Positions 15,965 to 26,152 of a DNA stretch of 27,511 bases are shown piece by piece. How positions within the stretch are numbered: the stretch's first letter is position 1; each line of letters begins with the position of its first letter. The notes beneath the pieces were generated by a model that saw nothing but the letters and a program-made list of their open reading frames with translations, was not told the DNA's origin and ran no database searches. The translations under genes and the position numbers were made by a program. The stretch is from a virus (lineage: Duplodnaviria > Heunggongvirae > Uroviricota > Caudoviricetes), in the IMG/VR virus record IMGVR_UViG_2537562015_000010. One strand, given 5' to 3'.

Positions 15965-16342
15965 TTATCCGCGTATATACCTAAAGGACTGAGGTGGTAC
16001 AGCGCCAGGTATCAATTCATTAAGTGGAATTGGAGTATCATAGCGCAGAGGGTTTTTTACTTCTATTGCGAATCCCTTGTCTCTTTCTGAAAAATATTCA
16101 TCAAAAAAATCCCGCGTAATACCTGCATACTTTTTTGTCATATTCCATAATTCATCTGGCTGAGATGACAAAACCTTTTCGATTTCAAACTCACCAATTA
16201 CCTTTCCGACGGGCATTGTTGCATAAATAATAACCGCTCGGACTTCTTTGTTCCGAAAAATTGTCTTCCTGAATTCGAATTTTTTATATCCATTTAAAAT
16301 GGATTCAGCGAACTCTGGTTTAATCGACAATAAAATTTTCAT
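15965..16342 (-). CDS. ASCH (PUA-like) domain protein, cargo gene 2
   Basis: 125 aa; N-terminus MKILLSIKPEFAESILNGYKKFEFRK carries the ASCH signature G-x-K-x-x-E-x-R; AT-rich codon usage; ATG at 16340-16342 overlaps the upstream gene by 23 nt. Confidence 0.6.
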   Translation of the reverse strand: MKILLSIKPEFAESILNGYKKFEFRKTIFRNKEVRAVIIYATMPVGKVIGEFEIEKVLSSQPDELWNMTKKYAGITRDFFDEYFSERDKGFAIEVKNPLRYDTPIPLNELIPGAVPPQSFRYIRG

Positions 16343-17375
16343 TAACCTTTCCCGCGCTTAAAACAGCTTTGAAGTGAATATCACTTAACGTGAAGAACCC
16401 TGAATAGCTTGGAGTATAACCTAAAATACTCAACAATTCATCTCTAATTATTCTTTTTTGCAAAGGGAAATTGTAAGTTAACTTAATTACATGTGGAGGA
16501 TAACATCTGCTATAATAAGCATGTAATTCTTCATCAGAAAAAATACTGGCGCCTCCACAATAAGACTTAAACTCATCATATGATAAAAATTCTCGAATGT
16601 TTTTATACTCTTGTAATGTACAAACAGAAGTAACCACCGACCGATATTTCGCCGCTCCCTGTCCATCTGTCGTTCGATAAATAATTATATTATCTCCTGG
16701 CTGAAGAAGCTCCATGCCTTTCATCGCGCCAATATATATCTTATGAATACTATTAGTATAAGTAACATCTTCTAAAATAGAATCATTTTCATTTTTTAAA
16801 ATTGACTCCGGGAAAAGCCTTGAATGAAACTCAGGTTTAATGGCTAATAAAAAATTTCTTCCATTCATTTTTATCATAGGATAATTATTATAAAATGATG
16901 CTGCTGATGGCTTCCAGTTAAAATCCTTAAAGTAGACACCTTCACAACCGTTTTCCGTCTCAAGATTTTTTCTTGAACACAATTTAAAACCATAGCGTTC
17001 AAGTAAACGAATCAATCCTTGATGTTTGTCAAAGATAGTAACGTACACTTCCTGAATATCATGAGGCATTGCAAAATCAAATATTTTTCTTACAAATCTC
17101 TCCCCCATTTTCGTTCCACGAGCATCTATTTTAAATGTTCCGCATTTAAGACGTTTTTTCATAGGGAAAGATGGGGTCATGTCATTTAATTCTTCATTTT
17201 CAATTTTGAGGTATAAAAAACCATCTATTTTTCCATAGTCATCATAAGATACGTATGCTTTCTCGTTTCTTTTCTTTAAGAACCAGCTTTCAAAAGTTGG
17301 GTAGTCATTTTTAAGTGAGTCAAAAAAAACATCTGAGAGGTCAACCTTCCCAAATTCGACATAACTAAGAGACAT
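16320..17375 (-). CDS. Two-domain cargo protein: N-terminal GNAT-like acetyltransferase fold plus C-terminal divergent ASCH-like domain
   Basis: 351 aa; the segment RGTKMGERFVRKIFDFAMPHDIQEVYVTIFDKHQGLIRLLERYGFK resembles GNAT motifs A/B; the C-terminal half begins LLAIKPEF, paralogous to the downstream ASCH protein but lacking the G-x-K-x-x-E-x-R motif; ATG at 17373-17375 with AAGGA upstream; AT-rich. Confidence 0.5.
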   Translation of the reverse strand: MSLSYVEFGKVDLSDVFFDSLKNDYPTFESWFLKKRNEKAYVSYDDYGKIDGFLYLKIENEELNDMTPSFPMKKRLKCGTFKIDARGTKMGERFVRKIFDFAMPHDIQEVYVTIFDKHQGLIRLLERYGFKLCSRKNLETENGCEGVYFKDFNWKPSAASFYNNYPMIKMNGRNFLLAIKPEFHSRLFPESILKNENDSILEDVTYTNSIHKIYIGAMKGMELLQPGDNIIIYRTTDGQGAAKYRSVVTSVCTLQEYKNIREFLSYDEFKSYCGGASIFSDEELHAYYSRCYPPHVIKLTYNFPLQKRIIRDELLSILGYTPSYSGFFTLSDIHFKAVLSAGKVNENFIVD

Positions 17376-17425
17376 TGTGCCATCCTTTTCAGTAGGTATT
17401 TTGCAAAAAAACGTTACTGTATCTC

Positions 17426-17453
17426 AAAATATATGTAAATAAACTTAGATCAA
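17426..17453 (-). promoter_or_regulatory. Candidate sigma70 promoter for the cargo operon
   Basis: On the minus strand TTGATC-N16-TATTTT, about 45-50 nt upstream of the cargo ATG, in an AT-rich spacer. Confidence 0.3.
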
Positions 17454-17491
17454 AAAAATGCTTACTAACGCTTTGTCTTACCGGGGCTGTG

Positions 17492-17551
17492 TGTGTCGAA
17501 ATACTCGCTTAGTGGCAGGGTGATAACTACATCTACCTCTACTGGTGCAAT
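17492..17551 (-). pseudogene. About 60-nt relic of a parM-like gene (recombination scar at the cargo boundary)
   Basis: By hand alignment, 17492-17551 is about 83% identical (50 of 60) to 18539-18598 inside the intact parM-like gene; no ORF spans it. Confidence 0.5.
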
Positions 17552-17589
17552 ATCAGACTCTGCCCGGCGCAGAGTATTCCGACTGTTGG

Positions 17590-17901
17590 TCATTGAGGGA
17601 ACATGGCCTGTATATTCTTTTTCATCTGTGTAACGTTGTTGTTCTCTGTATCCTGCTGTGGTGATTTATTTCGTGGCGTTGGTGTGAGCGGCTGGCTGAA
17701 TCCGCTTTCAGGCCATTCAGCCAGCCAGTAAGCAAAGGCAGGATCGCTTTTAATGAGTGCCAGTCCAGCCAGAAAGGCCGCGCGTTGCGCGCGGCTACGT
17801 TCAGAGGCTGGCAGGCTGTCGAGGTAATTACACGCCTCCCGTTCACTATTGACGGCGGCTGGCTTCAGATAGAAACTTATCCGTCTGGTTGGTGTCGTCA
17901 T
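17590..17901 (-). CDS. parR: ParR-like centromere-binding protein (ribbon-helix-helix)
   Basis: ATG at 17899-17901 with AAGGAG 7 nt upstream, 5 nt after the parM stop; RISFYLKPAAVNSEREACNYLDSLPASERSRAQRAAFLAGLALIKSDP resembles plasmid R1 ParR (TIAFKLNPDV...LDSIPQGERSRLNRAALTAGLALYRQDP); the longer ORF-track form overlapping parM is rejected. Confidence 0.65.
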   Translation of the reverse strand: MTTPTRRISFYLKPAAVNSEREACNYLDSLPASERSRAQRAAFLAGLALIKSDPAFAYWLAEWPESGFSQPLTPTPRNKSPQQDTENNNVTQMKKNIQAMFPQ

Positions 17902-17905
17902 TGGT

Positions 17906-18865
17906 TTACTCCTTGTCCATTGCGTACAGCCCATTAACCAGAGCAAACTGTGGCACCCCGTCCGCGATGAAAGTCGCATTAACTCCGCAGGCTTCGCGGA
18001 TAGCGGGTGCCACAATCTCCGCCCCGCCACCGACAACCATCACCCGTCCGTAACCCGAAAAACCCGCCAGCGCGCGGATCACGCGTTGTTTCAGTGTTTC
18101 TTCCTTTTCACGAATAACCGCCATCAGGCTGGCGTAATGCGCGTCATTGTGGATGTGCTGGCGCAGCCAGGCTTCATCATGGCGATGTTCGATAATGGTA
18201 TTGGCGATGTGGTGACTGGTGCGCATACCGTTAGTGGCCATCACCGACAGTACGGCATCGGCCATCAGAGAAACGCCTACGTGTGGATCGCAAAACACCT
18301 GGCTGATACCTGCCAGTTGCCCCTGAACCTTTGCCACATCCAGCGTGGTTCCGCCCAAATCCACAATCAGCAGGGATTCAAACGGACTCATGTCAGCCAG
18401 TGCCTTAAAGCCAGCCGGAATGGATTCAGGCATAACCCGCACGTTACGGATAGTGAATGCTTCGCCGTTCTGGTACTCCACCGGGCGCATGACGTTCGCT
18501 TTTTTGCGGTTGATGTTGGCCATGTCCGGCTGTGCGTTTGTGTCGAAATATTCGCTCAGTGGCAGGGTGACAACCACATCCACCTCCTGTGGTGTGATGC
18601 CTGATTTGACCAGCGCGTGATGAATGGCAATGACATTCACATCGCTGTACTGGTATTGCGTGTCGGTCGTCTGGACAAAGCGATCGCTGACCGGATCAAA
18701 ACCATAGCGCACGCCATCAAGCATGTAGTTCGCGGGCTGCGTGCCACCGAACGGCGCAGACCATTCCGACTTGAAGCTGTTCGGGCTGATGGCGTTGCGG
18801 CGTTCGCCGTTCTCAGTCCATGCCAGCTTGATGTTGGTGGAGCCGTCATCGATACAAATTTTCAT
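17906..18865 (-). CDS. parM: ParM/StbA-like actin-type segregation ATPase
   Basis: 319 aa; N-terminus MKICIDDGSTNIKLAW...ISPNSFK...YQYSDVNVIAIHHAL resembles R1 ParM (MLVFIDDGSTNIKLQW...); ATG at 18863-18865 with AAGGA upstream. Confidence 0.8.
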   Translation of the reverse strand: MKICIDDGSTNIKLAWTENGERRNAISPNSFKSEWSAPFGGTQPANYMLDGVRYGFDPVSDRFVQTTDTQYQYSDVNVIAIHHALVKSGITPQEVDVVVTLPLSEYFDTNAQPDMANINRKKANVMRPVEYQNGEAFTIRNVRVMPESIPAGFKALADMSPFESLLIVDLGGTTLDVAKVQGQLAGISQVFCDPHVGVSLMADAVLSVMATNGMRTSHHIANTIIEHRHDEAWLRQHIHNDAHYASLMAVIREKEETLKQRVIRALAGFSGYGRVMVVGGGAEIVAPAIREACGVNATFIADGVPQFALVNGLYAMDKE

Positions 18866-18894
18866 GTCGCTTTTCCTTATGTTGATTAATTAAT

Positions 18895-19005
18895 CGTTTA
18901 CGGGATTCTGAAATCCCGTTTTTGCCTGTTTTATGCGCGCTTCATATATCGCGGCGCGTTTTTTGCTCATTTACGGGATTTGTGAATCCCGTTTCTGTCT
19001 GTTTT
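18895..19005. repeat. Two 38-bp direct repeats, each containing the palindrome ACGGGATT-N4-AATCCCGT
   Basis: Repeat 1 at 18895-18932 (A-parM intergenic) and repeat 2 at 18968-19005 (inside the last codons of gpA); 31 of 38 positions identical; 73-bp period. Confidence 0.5.
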
Positions 19006-21782
19006 TTGTTTCCACTGGTCAGGCCACCCCGCAGCAGGTCTGCTTTGCGGCGGGCGCGTTCAGTGGTTTCACTGATTCTCTGTGCGTGCTCTGCGTCGCG
19101 GATGGCGCGCAGCATGTCAGAAAGCACGGTAACGGGGGTTTTCATGGTGTTCTGGTCTTGCTGAAGTGTGGATGCCAGGCGTGCGGCGGCTTCGGGGTCT
19201 GACGCCCCCAGCTGTTCCAGATAGCTGGCGACCGGGTTATGGCAGATCTCCGTGCTGCTTACGCCGTGGTTACGGCTCAGGCGCTGCCAGAGCTGCGTGA
19301 TCCGGCTGTCCGGTCGGGTATCCGGTTTGCGTACAATTTCAAATCCCTGCGGTGCAATGATGCTGCCGTCAACGTACAGACTGCCGCCCCGTAACAGGTG
19401 CTGCATCTGCTGTTCACCGATATGCAGGCCGAGAGATTCAGCAGACTCCCGCCATTCTTTAGCGAGTAATTCGTGGTTATCAGGCAAAGGCCGCGGCTGT
19501 TTGCGGCTCTGTGTCCAGTTCTGCATTTCATCACTGTTGTTTTTTGCCTGTTTGTCACGCAGCGAACGCATCAGCGCCCGGCGTTCGTGCCGTTTCAGTG
19601 AGCGCATCCATTCGTTCACTTCAACACCGTCAGGGATCTGCGGCCACGGTGCTGGCCGTTCTTCCGGCTGTTCTGTCCCGTTGTTGTCCGTTTCCTGTAC
19701 ACGGGGACAGTTATTGCCACGAGTCCAAGGGGCGGCAGGGCCGCCCTGAAGGTCAAAACCATTTTCGCGGGTGCTGTCTTCCGCTTCCGGTTTGCGTCTT
19801 ACCAGCTTCCAGTTATCCGGATGCGTGCACACACGGGAGGATTCCCCGATGAGTGGTGACCAGATCCCATAAATCTGTACGCTCTGTTCGCCGTAATCGT
19901 TCAGCTCTTCTGCGAGGTCGTAGGCGGTGCGAATCAGGTAGTCTTTGCGTGGAACAAGTACGCCACCCTGTTTCTCAATGTAGGTGGCAAAACATCCGGC
20001 ATCAGCGGCAGCGAGTACCGCATCCATTGCGTCATCCTTCAGCCGTTGCGGGCCTTCCGGGTTGCGTGCCATCTGGCTGGCAAGGCGGCGCAGTTCACGC
20101 CACACCTGACGGGAGGGGATACCAAAGAACTGGAACTGGCGGACCCGGTGAAGGCGCGCCCAGCCGATGGCGCGTTCCACGCTCTCGGCCATTGATTTTC
20201 CGGTTTCGTGGTCAACGCGTGGCTTGCCCGTTTTCGGGTCGATGCCATCCACGGCGCGGCTGTCCAGGTTCTTTCCGATGTAGGTGGCGATGTAGCTGGT
20301 TGGCGTGCCTTTTGAGCCGTCGACGTACTCCGCCTTAAAACGCGGAGTTATGTCATCGCCCAGCTCGTGGCGGTCTTCCTGAATGGCAATATCGCGGGTG
20401 TGGGACACGATGGTGTCGATTTCTTCCGGATGTGCAAAGACCATCATATGCCAGTGCACAGTGCCGTCATGGTGAGGCTCCACCGTGCGGATGCCATACC
20501 AGCGAAGACCGTCGCGGTTCAGTTTTTTGCGGACCGCCGCAAAAAACGTGTTAACCAGGTAATCGCTGGAGTCGCGCATGGTGGCCCCGTTCCATTTGGG
20601 ATTCGGATGGCCGTTCTCTGTTGTGGCGTGGTATTTTGACGGGCAGGTGACAGTCAGAAACACCGCTTTGTCGCCACGGGCTTCGGCCAGAAGTTCCAGT
20701 CCCTTCATGGTGGCCATCATTTCTGCCTTACGGTGAACCGGGTTACTTACTCCCGCGTAATACACCGTCTCGAGATCAATCGTGAACCCGTCTTCGTTTT
20801 CCAGCATGAAACTTTTCAGGAAATCGCGTGTTTTCTCGCGCTGTGCGCGAAACTCGCTTAACGCGTCCTGGCTCAGATAGGGTGATGTTTTTCTGGAAAC
20901 CAGACAGGCGGCGCGGAGTTGTTCTTCCCGCCACTCGCAACGTAACAGCCACAGTTTGCGCTTCCACCAGTCCGCACAGGTCAGGCGAAGGATTGCACCC
21001 GGCAGCAGCTCTGTGTCCGGTTCGTTCCTCCGGTCTTTGTCTGTTGTCAGTACGTCATAATGCGGAGGCATGGCGTGCAGGTGTAACGCCATGCGGGCCA
21101 GCATCTGATACGCCTTCAGGGTTACATCCATGGTCAGCTCGCCATCGGTCGCGCCAAAGCCGTCGCAGAGTTTTTCGAAGGTGCTGCTGAACATTGCCGC
21201 CGTCATGGTGGCCAGCGTCTGTATCTGGCGCTTGTTAAGCTGCGGCAGGTAAAGCAAATCGTCCAGGCGTTCGCGTCCGGCAAGGGCGCGATAACCCGGT
21301 GTCAGCCAGCGGCTGTCGGTGCGCTCCAGACGTTCGAATATTTTGCGCAGGGTTCCGCGCGCGTAGCGTTCAGCCTGCCAGCTCTTTTTGCCTTTCTGGC
21401 GATCGGCTTCCTGTTTTTTGCGCAGGAAAGAGAGGTGGCGGCTCAGTGGTTCACGCAGATAAACAGGTAGTGCCTTTAGTGTGGCAAAGGCACGGGCTAC
21501 TGGGTCTTGTTCTGTTGCCCGGCGCTTACTGATGATGCTCTGTGTCAGCTTTTCACGCTGTCCGGCTTCCTCAAGGGATGCCATGAGTTTTTTACCCATG
21601 GCGGATTGTGCGAAAAAGGCTTCTTCCTTCGCTTCCTGTTCTTCCTGTGCCCTTTTGTCTGCCTCAAGGTAGTAACGGATGGCGCGTTGCAGGTCGGTTT
21701 CAGTTTCCTGCCTGCGCTCCGTAAATCTGGCCGGATCAATGGCTGGCCGTGGTTCATTCCAGCTCCATGCAAACTCGCTCAT
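18942..21782 (-). CDS. A: Replication initiator (rolling-circle nickase), P2 gpA-like
   Basis: RTVEPHHDGTVHWHMMVF (HUH motif) and SYIATYIGKN match P2 gpA; preferred start is ATG 21780-21782 in an ATGA overlap with the upstream ORF (the ORF track begins at GTG 21809); about 946 aa, longer than P2 gpA at both ends. Confidence 0.85.
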   Translation of the reverse strand: MSEFAWSWNEPRPAIDPARFTERRQETETDLQRAIRYYLEADKRAQEEQEAKEEAFFAQSAMGKKLMASLEEAGQREKLTQSIISKRRATEQDPVARAFATLKALPVYLREPLSRHLSFLRKKQEADRQKGKKSWQAERYARGTLRKIFERLERTDSRWLTPGYRALAGRERLDDLLYLPQLNKRQIQTLATMTAAMFSSTFEKLCDGFGATDGELTMDVTLKAYQMLARMALHLHAMPPHYDVLTTDKDRRNEPDTELLPGAILRLTCADWWKRKLWLLRCEWREEQLRAACLVSRKTSPYLSQDALSEFRAQREKTRDFLKSFMLENEDGFTIDLETVYYAGVSNPVHRKAEMMATMKGLELLAEARGDKAVFLTVTCPSKYHATTENGHPNPKWNGATMRDSSDYLVNTFFAAVRKKLNRDGLRWYGIRTVEPHHDGTVHWHMMVFAHPEEIDTIVSHTRDIAIQEDRHELGDDITPRFKAEYVDGSKGTPTSYIATYIGKNLDSRAVDGIDPKTGKPRVDHETGKSMAESVERAIGWARLHRVRQFQFFGIPSRQVWRELRRLASQMARNPEGPQRLKDDAMDAVLAAADAGCFATYIEKQGGVLVPRKDYLIRTAYDLAEELNDYGEQSVQIYGIWSPLIGESSRVCTHPDNWKLVRRKPEAEDSTRENGFDLQGGPAAPWTRGNNCPRVQETDNNGTEQPEERPAPWPQIPDGVEVNEWMRSLKRHERRALMRSLRDKQAKNNSDEMQNWTQSRKQPRPLPDNHELLAKEWRESAESLGLHIGEQQMQHLLRGGSLYVDGSIIAPQGFEIVRKPDTRPDSRITQLWQRLSRNHGVSSTEICHNPVASYLEQLGASDPEAAARLASTLQQDQNTMKTPVTVLSDMLRAIRDAEHAQRISETTERARRKADLLRGGLTSGNKKQTETGFTNPVNEQKTRRDI

Positions 21783-22168
21783 GGCTGGTATCCCGTCACG
21801 CGCTGCCACTCCTGCGAGAAGATGGCGGAAAGGCGGTTAAATTCAGCGGTGTATTCACTCAGCGAGGCACACCCGCCAGCAGTGCGATGCGCCAGCATTG
21901 CCGCGAATACGGAGGCCGGGGAGTCGTAATACGCCAGCAGTGATTCGCCGTGTGGTGTCAGGCAGTGCAACGCCAGCCCGTGTGGTGTGAAGTCCACGCG
22001 GTAGCAGTCGTCTACTGTGAAATAAAGGGTGTCCACATTCTCCGGTTTTGTAGTGCGTGCTCTGTTGTCACGACCACGGATATAAAGATCAAATAATCCC
22101 TGAAGAACGGGAGCCAGACGGGTGTCCTGTGTGCGCACCCATCTTGTGAAGTCATGAGCGTCAATCAT
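21779..22168 (-). CDS. Hypothetical early protein
   Basis: ORF coupled to gpA by an ATGA overlap; first ATG at 22166-22168 (the ORF track begins at TTG 22198); no recognisable motif. Confidence 0.4.
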   Translation of the reverse strand: MIDAHDFTRWVRTQDTRLAPVLQGLFDLYIRGRDNRARTTKPENVDTLYFTVDDCYRVDFTPHGLALHCLTPHGESLLAYYDSPASVFAAMLAHRTAGGCASLSEYTAEFNRLSAIFSQEWQRVTGYQP

Positions 22169-22240
22169 GCTGCAATTCTCTTTACTACAGATGTGCAAAG
22201 GCCTCCCGCCGCAAGGTGCAGGAAAGGCCCGGAACAGGAA

Positions 22241-22471
22241 TTAATGGAGTTTGTTTTGCTGCTGGATGAGCTGCTGAAGCTCGCGCAGATCATCCGCCAG
22301 ATAGCTGAAAACAGCGGATGAATAGAGGTTTGAAAGTTCGCAGCTACGCTCATGCAGCATATTGATGTGCATGATTTTAGCGACGCGGAATGCGCGGGAA
22401 AGTCTGCGGTTGATTTCAGTCTGGATGTGACGACGCTCCGCGATAGCGCGGTGCTGTTTGCGGTTTGCCAT
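22241..22471 (-). CDS. Hypothetical 76-aa basic protein
   Basis: ATG at 22469-22471 with AAGAGG upstream; arginine-rich N-terminus; a single Cys, so not an Ogr-type zinc finger. Confidence 0.4.
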   Translation of the reverse strand: MANRKQHRAIAERRHIQTEINRRLSRAFRVAKIMHINMLHERSCELSNLYSSAVFSYLADDLRELQQLIQQQNKLH

Positions 22472-22838
22472 GATATGTGGCCTCTTGTAGTAAGTTGTGA
22501 AAACTCACCATCCAGAGGTTCCAAGCTCGGGGTGGTGAGACGTACAGGGTTGGAACTACCGGCTACAAGAGATCCCGGCCCGACCGAAATCGGCCCCGTA
22601 CGCCCCACCATAATTCGTGTGCGAAAAAGACGTGGCAATACAGTACGCACAAAAAAACCGCTGGCGCGGTTGTGCGCTCTTGTAGTCTGCGGGGTTCCAA
22701 TCCCGGCACCCGTTTTATGAGGTGCAGCGAAAATGTAACCTGACTGATTGCGGCATGGCAAGCGGTTTTTTTGTGAGAACGGCATACTAAAAAATCCTGA
22801 TACTGCTCCGGCCAGCGGTTTTCACTGGCCGGGTTTAA
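22472..22838 (-). promoter_or_regulatory. Structured non-coding leader with repeated CTCTTGTAG motifs and terminator-like hairpins
   Basis: CTCTTGTAG at 22483-22491 and 22677-22685 with its reverse complement at 22563-22571; GGTTCCAA / TTGGAAC pairing inside; minus-strand hairpin plus U7 at about 22650-22672; strong hairpin at about 22810-22835. Confidence 0.35.
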
Positions 22839-23669
22839 TTACTTCACCGGAACAAACGGAACAGCGGTGTTACTGGTCATGTATTGCGGTAGCGTGCCGT
22901 TCCATTTGTTAATCGCTTCCAGCTCCATAACGCCGGGATTCTGGCGCAGAGCTTCACCGCGTAAACGAATGGCGTCGGCTTCAGCCTGGGCTTTTGTGCG
23001 AATGGCATCGGCCTGTCCGGCTGCTTCTGCGCGTAGCATGTTGGCTTCTGCTTCACGCTGCTTGACTTCCTGTTCGCGTTGCAGGGTTTTCTGGTTTGCC
23101 GTGACTTTGGCATTAATGCTGTCGATAACGGTTGGCGGGTATTCCGGCTTACCCACATAAGAGAGGCTCATTACCTGAATGCCGATAGGTGTCATTTCTG
23201 CCTGAATGTCTTTAAGTGCTGAATCCAGCAGTTCAGACTTGCCACCGTCGATAAATTTATCGGTGGTCATTTTGCTGGCCAGTCGGTTGAGTGCGTCGGC
23301 GATCTTCTGGCGCAGGTCAGTGTCGGTAATGTCATCCACGCCTTTGCGGTAGGTCTGAAACACTGTAGTAACTTTGGATGGATCAACCTTGTAGGCCACA
23401 CCGATGTGATAGCCGATGGTTGTGCCGTCACTCATCTGAAAGCTGAACGGCTCATCGTAGGTCTTCATTTGTTTGAAGGTCGGGAAGATGTAAACCTCGG
23501 TATTCCAGCCAGTCCAGTAGCGACCAACGCCAACCACTTCGCCAACGCCTTTGTCGTCGCCCAGCTTGTTGACTTTGATGCCCACATTACCTGGCTCAAC
23601 GCGATCGCAGCCAACCAGCAGGATGGCGGCAAAAAGCGGGAGAATCTGAAAGAGTCTGAATTTCTTCAT
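22839..23669 (-). CDS. SPFH/band-7 (prohibitin/HflC-like) lipoprotein
   Basis: 276 aa; signal peptide with lipobox LLVGC; central SPFH-like region and a C-terminal Ala/Glu/Arg-rich coiled coil (QREAEANMLRAEAAGQADAIRTKAQAEADAIRLRGEA). Confidence 0.7.
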   Translation of the reverse strand: MKKFRLFQILPLFAAILLVGCDRVEPGNVGIKVNKLGDDKGVGEVVGVGRYWTGWNTEVYIFPTFKQMKTYDEPFSFQMSDGTTIGYHIGVAYKVDPSKVTTVFQTYRKGVDDITDTDLRQKIADALNRLASKMTTDKFIDGGKSELLDSALKDIQAEMTPIGIQVMSLSYVGKPEYPPTVIDSINAKVTANQKTLQREQEVKQREAEANMLRAEAAGQADAIRTKAQAEADAIRLRGEALRQNPGVMELEAINKWNGTLPQYMTSNTAVPFVPVK

Positions 23670-23869
23670 TGTTTAATTTCCTTGATGTACTTACTGAAAA
23701 GGCGAACAACGCCTGCCGGGTACAGCATGGCAATGAAAATGCCCAGCAATACCAGGAAGGAGCTGTCTGATGAAATCATTCGGGGGAGTAGTCCTGCATA
23801 CAGAATGAGAGAAACGAGGACGCATACCAGCGCCCACATGTATGCGCGAAACCAGGTCTTTTTGTTCAT
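23666..23869 (-). CDS. Small two-transmembrane protein coupled to the SPFH lipoprotein
   Basis: 67 aa, two hydrophobic helices (WALVCVLVSLILYAGLL, FLVLLGIFIAMLYPAGVV); ATG at 23867-23869 with AAGGA upstream; 4-nt overlap with the SPFH gene start. Confidence 0.5.
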   Translation of the reverse strand: MNKKTWFRAYMWALVCVLVSLILYAGLLPRMISSDSSFLVLLGIFIAMLYPAGVVRLFSKYIKEIKQ

Positions 23870-23880
23870 ATCGCGGTCCT

Positions 23881-24180
23881 TTACTGGTTAAGGAAGAAAT
23901 CAAAAACCTTGTCGATGCGTTGCAGTAGCTCTCGTTGCATTGCTTCCGGCGTTTCTGGTTCACCAAGCGAACCCAGTGGTGCGCAGAAATCAGCGATTTC
24001 ATGATGGAGCGCCAGGCGAATGGCTGGAGACATGGTTCTGGCGTGCTCCAGCTCATCCAGCAGTGCCAGCACGGCAGACGGCGAGAGCATTGCGCGAAAC
24101 GCCAGTAATTTTTGATGCGTTGCCATTCGTTGCAGGTCAATCGCCAGTTCGCGTAATTCCTGATGGTTGATGGCGCTCAT
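23881..24180 (-). CDS. Hypothetical early protein (99 aa)
   Basis: ATG at 24178-24180 in an ATGA overlap with the upstream gene; no recognisable motif. Confidence 0.4.
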   Translation of the reverse strand: MSAINHQELRELAIDLQRMATHQKLLAFRAMLSPSAVLALLDELEHARTMSPAIRLALHHEIADFCAPLGSLGEPETPEAMQRELLQRIDKVFDFFLNQ

Positions 24181-24422
24181 GCTCTGGCTTCCTTCAGTAG
24201 CTGGTTAAACATGTTGGTAAGTGGATTGCCGCACCCGAACGGCATCGGGTTTATCTGGTAAGAAAAGCGACCGCCTGTTTTGCGCTCTTTTCTTATGACT
24301 GAACCGCTGCGCCAGAGTCGGCGTAACTCCGCATTAATGGCTGTGGTTGGGGTATTCAGTGCTGCGGCGATTTCTCCACCGCTACACCCCGGATTGGCGG
24401 CGATATAGTCCAGAATGGTCAT
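24177..24422 (-). CDS. Hypothetical early protein (81 aa), possible winged-helix DNA-binding protein
   Basis: ATG at 24420-24422 in an ATGA overlap; the segment GCSGGEIAAALNTPTTAINAELRRLWRSGSVIR looks like a helix-turn-helix. Confidence 0.4.
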   Translation of the reverse strand: MTILDYIAANPGCSGGEIAAALNTPTTAINAELRRLWRSGSVIRKERKTGGRFSYQINPMPFGCGNPLTNMFNQLLKEARA

Positions 24423-24622
24423 CTGCGTGACTCCTGTACCTGTCGGATAAGGTTCACCCGCACCACATTCGTGGCGCAGAAGTAAGTGCCGTCAGTGAGA
24501 TAGATGTGATGTGCATCCTTTTCTGAACGGTGTTTGTCGATTGTGGTAATCAGGCGTTCGTCGACTTCGTATTCACGTCCTCTGGAGGTAAAACGAACGA
24601 CAGGAAAATGCTTAATTGCCAT
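24419..24622 (-). CDS. Hypothetical early protein (67 aa)
   Basis: ATG at 24620-24622 preceded by AAGGAGG. Confidence 0.45.
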   Translation of the reverse strand: MAIKHFPVVRFTSRGREYEVDERLITTIDKHRSEKDAHHIYLTDGTYFCATNVVRVNLIRQVQESRR

Positions 24623-24708
24623 TACGCCTCCTTGGCGTGTGCGAATACCTCCGCGAATGCGGATTGTTTTTACATTTTCTTATTTAACCTGTGGTTTTAT
24701 TTGCTCTG

Positions 24709-24822
24709 TTATTCACCAGTGAAAAAGCGTTCAATCTTTTTTACTGAATGAATAATTCGCATAATCCCAATGGCGCAGGCCACCGAAATAATCAGAACAA
24801 GCCATGAGATAAATATACTCAT
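24709..24822 (-). CDS. Unannotated 37-aa hydrophobic peptide MSIFISWLVLIISVACAIGIMRIIHSVKKIERFFTGE
   Basis: Hand-translated; ATG at 24820-24822 forms an ATGA overlap with the stop of the upstream 80-aa gene; one predicted transmembrane helix and a basic tail; below the ORF-track size cutoff. Confidence 0.35.
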   Translation of the reverse strand: MSIFISWLVLIISVACAIGIMRIIHSVKKIERFFTGE

Positions 24823-25061
24823 GCAATATTCCCCAGCTTATACGGTTCAATATGTTCCCCGCATTCTGCGGCACAGATCAGCTCGGAAAGTTCGTTAAGT
24901 GCATCCAGATCATCAGCGTAAAAAGCCACGTCATACAGACTCCGGATTGCCCTGGTCAATGAGTCACGGGCTGCACGTTCAGCATGAGCGCCTGATGCAC
25001 TTAAGCGAAAATAAAAACGCTCAAGTGCTTTGTTAATGAGAGTTTTATATTCTTTGCCCAT
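24819..25061 (-). CDS. Hypothetical early protein (80 aa)
   Basis: ATG at 25059-25061; fits the operon spacing. Confidence 0.4.
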   Translation of the reverse strand: MGKEYKTLINKALERFYFRLSASGAHAERAARDSLTRAIRSLYDVAFYADDLDALNELSELICAAECGEHIEPYKLGNIA

Positions 25062-25072
25062 CGCAACGCCCT

Positions 25073-25360
25073 TTAATCTGCTTTCTGAATTTCAGTTTCT
25101 GAATCCATACAAATAATTTCGATATAGGGTTCATCGCCATTAACCTGGCGTGCCTTTTCAGCTTCGCTAATGATTTCTCGTACGGTCTGGTACGGAAGTT
25201 CCACAAGCAGTCGCGTGCCGTTCAGATAAACGTAAGTGGCTTCGTCGACTACGTTTTTACCCGCCGGAGCCACTCCATCAATAGCGGATGCGCGTAATAA
25301 CAGTTCACCGCGAAAATCAATAAAACGGATAAATACACCTTGTGCATGCTCTTTGGTCAT
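25073..25360 (-). CDS. Hypothetical early protein (95 aa)
   Basis: ATG at 25358-25360 (MTKEHAQGV...) with AGGTG upstream, 10 nt after the preceding stop; the ORF-track N-terminal extension is rejected. Confidence 0.4.
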   Translation of the reverse strand: MTKEHAQGVFIRFIDFRGELLLRASAIDGVAPAGKNVVDEATYVYLNGTRLLVELPYQTVREIISEAEKARQVNGDEPYIEIICMDSETEIQKAD

Positions 25361-25370
25361 AAAGCACCTG

Positions 25371-25712
25371 TTATAAATCAGCCTGTTTAATAAAACTTTG
25401 TCCGCGAAGCAGACGATCAACCGTGCGTAGTGCTTCGTATAATGTGAAATCCTGCCCGAACTGATTGTCGCCGCAGCTCAATGCAAAAATGCGGTTTCCG
25501 GTAAACGGATTGCGTGGGCATTTGTGAACCACGATTCCAGCTTTCTCAATCAGCCAGGCATGCTCGCCGATTTGTTTTACTGGGTGGCCATCCGGCGTTG
25601 CGTGTGTATCACTCAGGCTGTAGCGGATGTTGCTGCGTGATGCACTGGTAGCGAAACGGTTAGCCTGGCGTTCAGCCCCATTACGAAAGCGTGAATTACG
25701 TTGCTGTTTCAT
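25371..25712 (-). CDS. Hypothetical early protein (113 aa)
   Basis: ATG at 25710-25712 with GGGAG upstream; first gene after cox. Confidence 0.4.
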   Translation of the reverse strand: MKQQRNSRFRNGAERQANRFATSASRSNIRYSLSDTHATPDGHPVKQIGEHAWLIEKAGIVVHKCPRNPFTGNRIFALSCGDNQFGQDFTLYEALRTVDRLLRGQSFIKQADL

Positions 25713-25730
25713 ATCAAAACTCCCTGCATC

Positions 25731-26057
25731 TCATGCAGCAAAATTAAGAAAGCCTAATCCCAAATCTTCCGCCAGCTTCTTAGCTTTATTAAGCCAGTGG
25801 TTGCGCCAATCTTTACGCTCAGGAGGAAGCTGTTTCGTTGCGTCATAGACCATTTCGAGCCACTCGTTCCATAAGATGAGGAGGCGGCGTGAACTTCCTT
25901 CCTCGCCTAAAACTTCACGCTCAGTAGCCAGAGGGATGAGCCGACGTTCCACCAACTTTCTTACGGCAGATTCGGTCTTGCCCGTGCGGCGGGCAAATTC
26001 ATCGACGGTGATGGGGTCTGGGATCTTAAACAATGCCCTCAATAGTTCTTCATTCAT
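25731..26057 (-). CDS. cox: Cox-like excisionase / early-operon repressor
   Basis: From ATG 26055-26057 (GGGAG 8 nt upstream) the product MNEELLRALFKIPDPITVDEFARRTGKTESAVRKLVERRLIPL resembles P2 Cox (AIPYQEFAKLIGKSTGAVRRMIDKGKLPV); divergent from C. Confidence 0.6.
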   Translation of the reverse strand: MNEELLRALFKIPDPITVDEFARRTGKTESAVRKLVERRLIPLATEREVLGEEGSSRRLLILWNEWLEMVYDATKQLPPERKDWRNHWLNKAKKLAEDLGLGFLNFAA

Positions 26058-26072
26058 GTGATAATCTCCCTG

Positions 26073-26104
26073 TTTGGGGTATTTCTTGCGACGGATGCCC
26101 CAAA
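26073..26104. promoter_or_regulatory. Candidate operator in the cox-C intergenic switch region
   Basis: Inverted repeat TTTGGGG (26073-26079) / CCCCAAA (26098-26104) with an 18-bp spacer, in the 95-bp divergent intergenic region where the P2 Pe/Pc promoters lie. Confidence 0.3.
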
Positions 26105-26152
26105 TCAAACTCATTTGTATAAACATTAATACAGACGTTGGAGAATTGCAAC

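Follow-up and report, generated by a model that had tools for sequence, protein, structure and literature searches.

A cargo locus in a P88-like prophage carries two direct repeats, each containing a perfect palindrome, that straddle the stop codon of the replication gene gpA immediately upstream of the partition genes parM and parR. The question that they raise is whether they form the centromere on which a ParR protein would act, part of a replication origin or something unrelated to either. The window (the whole stretch of DNA that was analysed, 27,511 nt, IMG/VR record IMGVR_UViG_2537562015_000010) is a P88-like prophage (Xuanwuvirus, Peduoviridae; P2-type) with 96–99% identity to 14 phage records. 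All genes from 15965 to 26126 lie on the minus strand, among them, in this order, a Cox-like early gene, gpA, parM, parR and two cargo genes, beyond which are convergent portal and terminase genes. gpA stops at a TGA (18942–18944, minus strand), and its true start is probably about 15 codons inside the ORF, as the P88 annotation gives 940 aa. The ParM and ParR genes next to the repeats are both intact and belong to the R1/pB171 families: the window ParM matches the R1 ParM structure 1MWK (9e-93), and pB171 ParR (2JD3) is the sole PDB sequence match of the window ParR (E = 0.002).

A repeat search of the window returned the two copies as one direct-repeat family of 42 nt, with 81% identity between the copies and a start-to-start distance of 73 bp (Table 1). 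An earlier sequence-only reading had described the same direct pair at the same spacing, which stands, and had given it a length of 38 bp, which is too short. That reading had also seen in each repeat a perfect palindrome with 8-bp arms and a 4-nt spacer, and the repeat and motif searches bear this out: the proximal palindrome ACGGGATTCTGAAATCCCGT is ACGGGATT-CTGA-AATCCCGT and the distal palindrome ACGGGATTTGTGAATCCCGT is ACGGGATT-TGTG-AATCCCGT, so that the arms are the same in both copies and the 4-nt spacers differ. With up to three mismatches allowed, ACGGGATT-N4-AATCCCGT occurs at these two sites only on both strands of the 27.5 kb; shuffled windows gave 0.10 expected matches, and two matches were reached in 0 of 100 shuffles. 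The element comprises two full 42-nt units with four half-sites and is palindromic, not composed of 10–11-bp direct iterons; it also contains three copies of an A-rich 17-mer that form a separate repeat family. From the gpA and parM coordinates, the proximal repeat lies in the 76-bp gpA–parM spacer and the distal repeat in the end of gpA, in agreement with the placement first proposed. The whole element (18894–19008) is co-oriented with the parM–parR operon and directly upstream of it, parM starting at 18865 on the minus strand. Within the distal unit, the A-rich block AAAACAGACA (19005–18996) is invariant across 69 unique sequences, and within the proximal unit AAAACAGGCAAAAACGGGATTT is unchanged in a divergent relative from Hafnia. 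An A6 run at 18955–18965, just past the distal repeat, is A5 or A7 in a few IMG/VR relatives; the A5 variant fuses gpA in frame to a 26-codon ORF considered below and the A7 variant gives gpA another tail. These variants may be sequencing errors or real length variation.

Table 1 Features of the gpA–parMR region, in window coordinates
Feature	Position	Strand	Remarks
gpA replication endonuclease ORF	18942..21809	-	Pfam Phage_GPA, E = 4e-131
Homologue of the P2 ori nick site, GCCGCCCCTTGGACTCGTGGCAATAACTGT	~19700..19740	-	Inside gpA; from alignment to the P2 record
Left boundary of the par cassette	19042..19050		End of homology in the parMR-less loci L139, L157, L166 and L174
Distal 42-nt repeat unit, candidate parC	18967..19008	-	Overlaps the last ~20 gpA codons
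Distal palindrome ACGGGATT-N4-AATCCCGT	18973..18992		Conserved core GGGATT-N4-AATCCC
31-bp core between the units	18936..18966	-	gpA stop, A6 run, variable GC/AT segment
Proximal 42-nt repeat unit, candidate parC	18894..18935	-	In the gpA–parM spacer
Proximal palindrome ACGGGATT-N4-AATCCCGT	18900..18919		Weak -10-like CAGAAT in the loop and right arm
parM, actin-like segregation ATPase	17906..18865	-	Pfam StbA_N 1.8e-82; ParM C-terminal domain 1.3e-68
parR, ribbon-helix-helix adaptor, StbB/ParR family	17590..17901	-	Pfam PF10784 1e-25

Conservation of the palindromes in relatives was one of the checks that the sequence-only reading had called for, and its outcome is positive. The most informative relative is a phage in a Hafnia metagenome-assembled genome (L123), in which gpA shares 58% amino acid identity with the window and ParM 94%. 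It keeps the two 42-nt units exactly 73 bp apart, with the palindrome cores GGGATTCATGAATCCC and GGGATTTGAAAATCCC; all four GGGATT/AATCCC half-sites are unchanged, and the outer two arm positions and the spacers are changed. Its gpA passes through the distal palindrome in another frame (KRDS*), with a TGA stop in the palindrome loop. Conservation is thus at the level of DNA and not of peptide. Across the last 600 bp of gpA, nucleotide identity between the window and the Hafnia phage is 0.42–0.67, and from ~19011, at the distal repeat, it rises to 0.77–0.97, a level that extends across parM and the 5′ half of parR. A further locus (L039) has a different gpA C-terminal region, and its homology to the window likewise resumes at the distal repeat (~19011). 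Searches for other distant relatives left the Hafnia phage as the sole clearly divergent comparator: a ParM tblastn search against phages found P88-like phages and D6 only, a ParR search of 5.8 billion proteins found P88-type alleles only (Escherichia, Shigella, Salmonella and Hafnia), the gpA C-terminal domain occurred in Xuanwuvirus only within the phage collection, and a viral-contig scan seeded with the Hafnia gpA yielded the E. coli group only.

Among 80 loci anchored on the gpA C-terminal domain, both palindromes were present in all 73 that carry parM and in none of the four complete P88-like loci that do not; the other three were contigs truncated after the distal copy. The four cassette-less loci show ~95% homology to the window up to the boundary given in Table 1. 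In the one of these that was inspected (L157), gpA ends ~25 codons earlier, with …ARKKISLLHRTR (…HRTR), and is followed by a GC-rich hairpin and then by unrelated cargo genes on the other strand. This pattern of presence and absence fits the published description of the gpA–gpQ interval as a cargo hotspot, in which a putative partition system is found in about a quarter of E. coli P2-like phages (PMC9122126). The spacing of 73 bp between the palindromes is kept in 86 of 89 loci. The Hafnia DNA, the step in nucleotide identity and the co-occurrence counts agree that the repeats are part of the parMR cassette and not of gpA. Linkage to parMR would, however, be equally expected of any other cis element borne by the cassette. 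As a separate observation, the hotspot of L157 (3476–5700) contains three unrelated minus-strand ORFs of 269, 114 and 312 aa, which could be a defence system.

Two readings would make the repeats something other than a functional DNA site. The distal copy corresponds to the gpA codons ...KQTETGFTNPVNE (gpA tail …KQTETGFTNPVNEQKTRRDI), and a 26-codon ORF on the minus strand (18970–18890; MSKKRAAIYEARIKQAKTGFQNPVND) runs across the core and the proximal repeat and ends with the same motif as gpA. The repeat might accordingly be a duplicated peptide-coding segment, one copy forming the gpA C terminus KQTETGFTNPVNE and the other the ORF MSKKRAAIYEARIKQAKTGFQNPVND. Both copies do lie in open frames that give the same peptide, and 72 of 76 haplotypes, like the Hafnia phage, keep the ORF intact with start and stop the same. 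Its pN/pS is 0.50, lower than in either of the other frames (1.15 and 0.84). But the gpA peptide is unconserved, given the other frame of the Hafnia gpA; the gpA tail is wholly absent from the cassette-less phages; the 76 haplotypes specify 45 different peptides from the ORF; and the conserved spacing alone would hold the frame open. We therefore regard a duplicated peptide as highly improbable. The ORF, for which neither a Shine–Dalgarno sequence nor a PHROG match was found, is unproven as a real gene. A peptide repeat or a programmed frameshift, in which the A6 run could in principle connect gpA with the ORF, was considered and rejected, because the Hafnia gpA is in another frame and stops inside the palindrome and the cassette-less phages do not have the tail. 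For the same reasons the earlier suggestion that the distal copy is under dual coding and structural constraint was overstated: with a different frame in Hafnia and a gpA that ends ~25 codons sooner where the cassette is missing, the end of gpA looks more like a reading frame that runs on into the cassette than like constrained protein, and the last ~30 codons of gpA in par-bearing phages are cassette sequence. The other reading, which takes the repeats as a duplication or recombination scar of no function, left at the junction of the par cassette with the gpA 3′ end, draws on the position of the distal copy within ~35 bp of the cassette boundary and on the finding that, among close relatives, the repeat region is conserved no better than its surroundings, the neighbouring parM coding sequence included (a point that also counts against a centromere). 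A scar does not readily account for the Hafnia phage, which keeps both copies, all four half-sites and the exact spacing next to gpA 3′ DNA of ~55% identity, or for palindromes in which the spacer bases vary while the arms stay fixed; moreover, both copies are on the same side of the cassette and so do not flank it. This reading is very unlikely.

If the repeats do act as DNA or RNA, they could still do so other than as a centromere. One such reading takes the palindromes as nucleic-acid hairpins and not as protein sites, whether as tandem intrinsic terminators on the plus strand, as elements in the stability or processing of a gpA–parM mRNA, or as single-strand hairpins in rolling-circle replication. 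On the plus strand the arms of each palindrome would pair as an 8-bp stem around a 4-nt loop, a T-rich run comes next, and a terminator scan lists both; predicted hairpin energies are about −10 to −11 kcal/mol whichever strand is folded, z-scores reach −4.6 (minus strand), and the T-run (the A-run of the minus strand) is retained in the Hafnia relative. Against this, no plus-strand gene or transcription unit ends at the palindromes, there is no U-tract past the stems on the sense (minus) strand, and a hairpin function leaves the strict 73-bp spacing unexplained. Arm variation, sampled as 76 distinct haplotypes from 163 loci, is also at odds with a hairpin: none of the 16 arm pairs shows a compensatory (two-sided) change, bases that do not pair often face each other (C.A at one position in 20 of the 76), and Hafnia has lost the outer two pairs. 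All deviations in the arms are one-sided and the central GG/CC pairs never vary, within the small divergence available among these haplotypes, which is the pattern of independently read protein half-sites and not of a selected stem. Natural variants with a mismatch in one arm, such as GGGACT in 20 of 76 haplotypes, count in turn against parC. A search of Rfam gave no match. On balance a hairpin is quite unlikely. An operator, either for a phage or host regulator other than ParR or for autoregulation with no centromere role, is suggested by the perfect 20-bp palindrome, a classic shape of site for a dimeric regulator, and by a weak -10-like hexamer in the proximal palindrome (CAGAAT; GAAAAT or AAAAAT in variants), 16 bp past AAAACA. 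Yet the cassette delimited by homology encodes ParM and ParR alone, the palindrome is found nowhere else in the prophage window, and the promoter match, at 7/12, is under the scan threshold; this reading we consider distinctly unlikely. The origin of replication was the alternative that the sequence-only reading had left standing, on the ground that P2-family origins sit in the 3′ part of gene A, as the P2 record also has it. In that record the ori nick is annotated at 29892 inside gene A, within GCCGCGCCTCGGAGTCCTGTCAATAACTGT (nick site GCGCCTCGGAGTCCTGTCAATAAC), and BLASTP aligns P2 gpA …GIAAPRSPVNNCGK… with window gpA …GGPAAPWTRGNNCPRV…, so that the P2 nick site aligns not with the repeats but 700–800 bp from them (Table 1). 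Compared with the Hafnia phage, the gpA gene is most similar at 19777–19718, where identity over 60 nt reaches 95% against 40–75% elsewhere; this peak lies in the same part of gpA, and the origin is likely to be at ~19.7 kb, 700–800 bp off the repeats. Because the nick-site homologue is ~750 bp away, and because the four cassette-less P88-like phages with ~95% identical gpA 3′ regions do not have the palindromes, we reject the idea that the repeats are a part of a P2-type origin recognized by gpA; it is almost certainly wrong.

The promoter evidence also bears on the earlier suggestion that the proximal repeat covers the likely parM promoter, which is not upheld; the suggested autoregulatory operator at that place likewise gains no support. 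A consensus scan of 18600–19300 found no sigma-70-like site. A relaxed scan of the P88-type region gave AAAACA-16-CAGAAT as its best match, at 7/12, and recovered the known R1 promoter at 8/12. The -10-like hexamer of this weak match falls partly in the loop and partly in the right arm of the proximal palindrome; its equivalent is GAAAAT in Hafnia, and L079 has none. By analogy with R1, a promoter would be expected in the 31-bp core, where neither the consensus nor the relaxed scan detected one; a par promoter placed within or between the repeats and repressed by ParR is an R1-type trait that not all such centromeres share. parMR may be read through from the early operon.

With these alternatives weighed, the reading of the repeats as a parC centromere can be set against the centromeres already known. 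The experimentally defined parC of plasmid R1 consists of ten 11-bp direct iterons, arranged as five and five around a 39-bp core that holds the promoter (PMC5016525); the R1-type array was recovered here as one locus (L084) alongside ~30 other parMR loci. Like the parC of R1 and NR1, as Dam & Gerdes 1994 is summarized in that review (PMC5016525), the P88-type element lies directly upstream of homologous parM and parR genes, and window and R1 share 47% identity in ParM and 42% in ParR over the ribbon-helix-helix (RHH) domain. The likeness extends to layout, in that two repeat blocks flank a short core (31 bp here, 39 bp in R1), to an A-rich top strand and to the same Shine–Dalgarno context, ATAAGGA. 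The differences are equally plain. Where R1 has its ten direct iterons, the P88-type element has two 42-nt units with one 20-bp palindrome each; where the R1 core contains the promoter TTGATT-16-TAAACT, no clear promoter is found here; and the P88-type element runs into the 3′ end of the gene upstream of it. When the ten R1 iterons were turned into a weight matrix, it ranked generic A-rich sites in the window above the repeats, and a MAFFT alignment of the region with R1 parC was unconvincing. From these two results we take the P88-type element to be a site of another specificity and not a copy of R1 parC.

In pSK41, parC is a continuous array; ParR is an RHH protein that binds as one dimer per iteron (PMC5016525). 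With the parC sites of pSK41 and pB171, for which there are ParR–DNA structures (Schumacher 2007 and Moller-Jensen 2007, via PMC5016525), the P88-type element shares an RHH ParR of the same fold family and repeat units of ~20 bp, long enough for two ParR dimers each; in pSK41, however, four direct 20-bp repeats follow one another without a break, whereas the P88-type element has two inverted-repeat units 73 bp apart. RHH proteins are reviewed as binding inverted and direct arrangements of repeats equivalently (PMC5016525). In all of the ~30 other R1-type parMR loci, repeats are clustered in the 200 bp before parM; a pair of clusters with a core between them is the usual arrangement, and some loci have inverted motif orientations. 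The enterobacterial arrays among those compared (the phage-plasmid D6, Klebsiella, Leclercia, Pantoea and others) thus share the position and the two-cluster layout of the P88-type element, and those of Pantoea (L093), Escherichia sp. (L096) and Rosenbergiella (L103) have inverted motif orientations too. They differ in having TTCTC-type and other iterons and ParR strands such as RRKITFYLNP, and GGGATT-N4-AATCCC occurs in none of them. Among prophages, the AlpA/AlpC–alpS system of the Corynebacterium prophage CGP3 (PMC5539076) similarly combines an actin-like filament, a DNA-binding adaptor and an upstream cis site, but its protein families are unrelated in sequence and its host and phage type are different; it is a functional precedent only, for a partition-like system in an integrating phage. 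A description of the P88-type site itself was not found in searches of the literature on P88, Xuanwuvirus and parC.

ParR varies in a way that is compatible with a fixed site. Of the 49 full-length (101–104 aa) P88-type alleles listed, 45 share the N-terminal strand TRRISFYLKP without change; of the four exceptions, one has L for F and three depart from it immediately ahead of RRISFYLKP. Most of the differences fall in the linker (residues ~65–95), and the C-terminal tail …KNIQAxFPE is nearly constant. In four P88-like loci (L083 and L086–L088), ParR has only 51–68% identity to the window ParR next to a ParM of 98–100% identity. Overall the pattern resembles diversifying selection or frequent exchange of alleles. 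The constant recognition strand is consistent with the constant half-sites; since that strand is essentially invariant and the palindrome variants are shared between the two main ParR N-terminal types, covariation between ParR and its site is uninformative.

Taken together, the position, architecture, DNA-level conservation and strict linkage to parMR make a centromere the best-supported reading: the two 42-nt units are probably a split palindromic parC of a parC–parM–parR cassette and the predicted site of ParR. The centromere idea of the sequence-only reading thus gains support from the parC-like position, from conservation in Hafnia at the same spacing and from a presence confined to parMR-bearing loci. 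Against it stand the small number of units (two, with four half-sites, to ten iterons in R1), their palindromic form, the lack of a convincing promoter between or over them, and the fit of each palindrome and its T-run to a plus-strand terminator pattern. The element would be a new type II parC, unusual in being laid out as two palindromic units. ParR binding and its stoichiometry, looping, any repression of parMR and any biological role in an integrating phage are inferred, as follows. The cassette would sit as a self-contained unit in the gpA–gpQ cargo hotspot of this P88-like prophage of P2 type. On the model of R1, pB171 and pSK41, dimers of the RHH protein ParR would recognize the four CGGGAT half-sites, probably as two dimers per 20-bp palindrome. 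As 73 bp is ~7 helical turns, both palindromes should face the same side of the DNA, and this phasing, together with the A-tract-rich flanks, could favour one bent or looped ParR partition complex over ~115 bp. The conserved C-terminal tail of ParR might then capture the ends of ParM filaments, which would push extrachromosomal copies of the phage genome apart.

That the element represents a minimal palindromic type II centromere, with a layout unlike that of any iteron array examined to date (two phased palindromes that supply four half-sites and are joined to the 3′ end of the phage replication gene), is a more ambitious claim that we think unlikely. Were it true, the cassette would allow an integrating P2-like phage to be maintained or segregated in plasmid form, and the 26-codon ORF might be a real micro-protein of the system. 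Rousset et al. 2022 suggest that the partition system may permit maintenance as a plasmid (PMC9122126). Locating a candidate cis site makes the function of a P2-like partition cassette directly testable with a 115-bp fragment and sets that site apart from the replication origin predicted at ~19.7 kb. Beyond this, the element is an expected component of a gene pair that was already annotated, a fairly ordinary example of modest interest.

Several minor observations accompanied the analysis. The top hits of the scan with the R1-iteron matrix were an inverted pair of the 13-mer ACAAAAAAACCGC, at 22649–22661 (plus strand) and 22762–22774 (minus strand), ~100 bp apart inside an Ash-family ORF (22165–22785). 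Some assemblies labelled Vagococcus, Streptomyces, Clostridiales and Lachnospiraceae contain near-identical enterobacterial parMR or P88-like sequences (L087, NZ_JBQPOM010000071.1; L099; L100; L110), probably through contamination or mis-binning of those records. A complete circular E. coli ‘plasmid’ record of 34,461 bp (NZ_CP148288.1, L207) is a P88-like phage genome in which gpA, parM, parR and the two palindromes are all present; either the assembly caught an excised or replicating phage, or the record is evidence of plasmid-like carriage.
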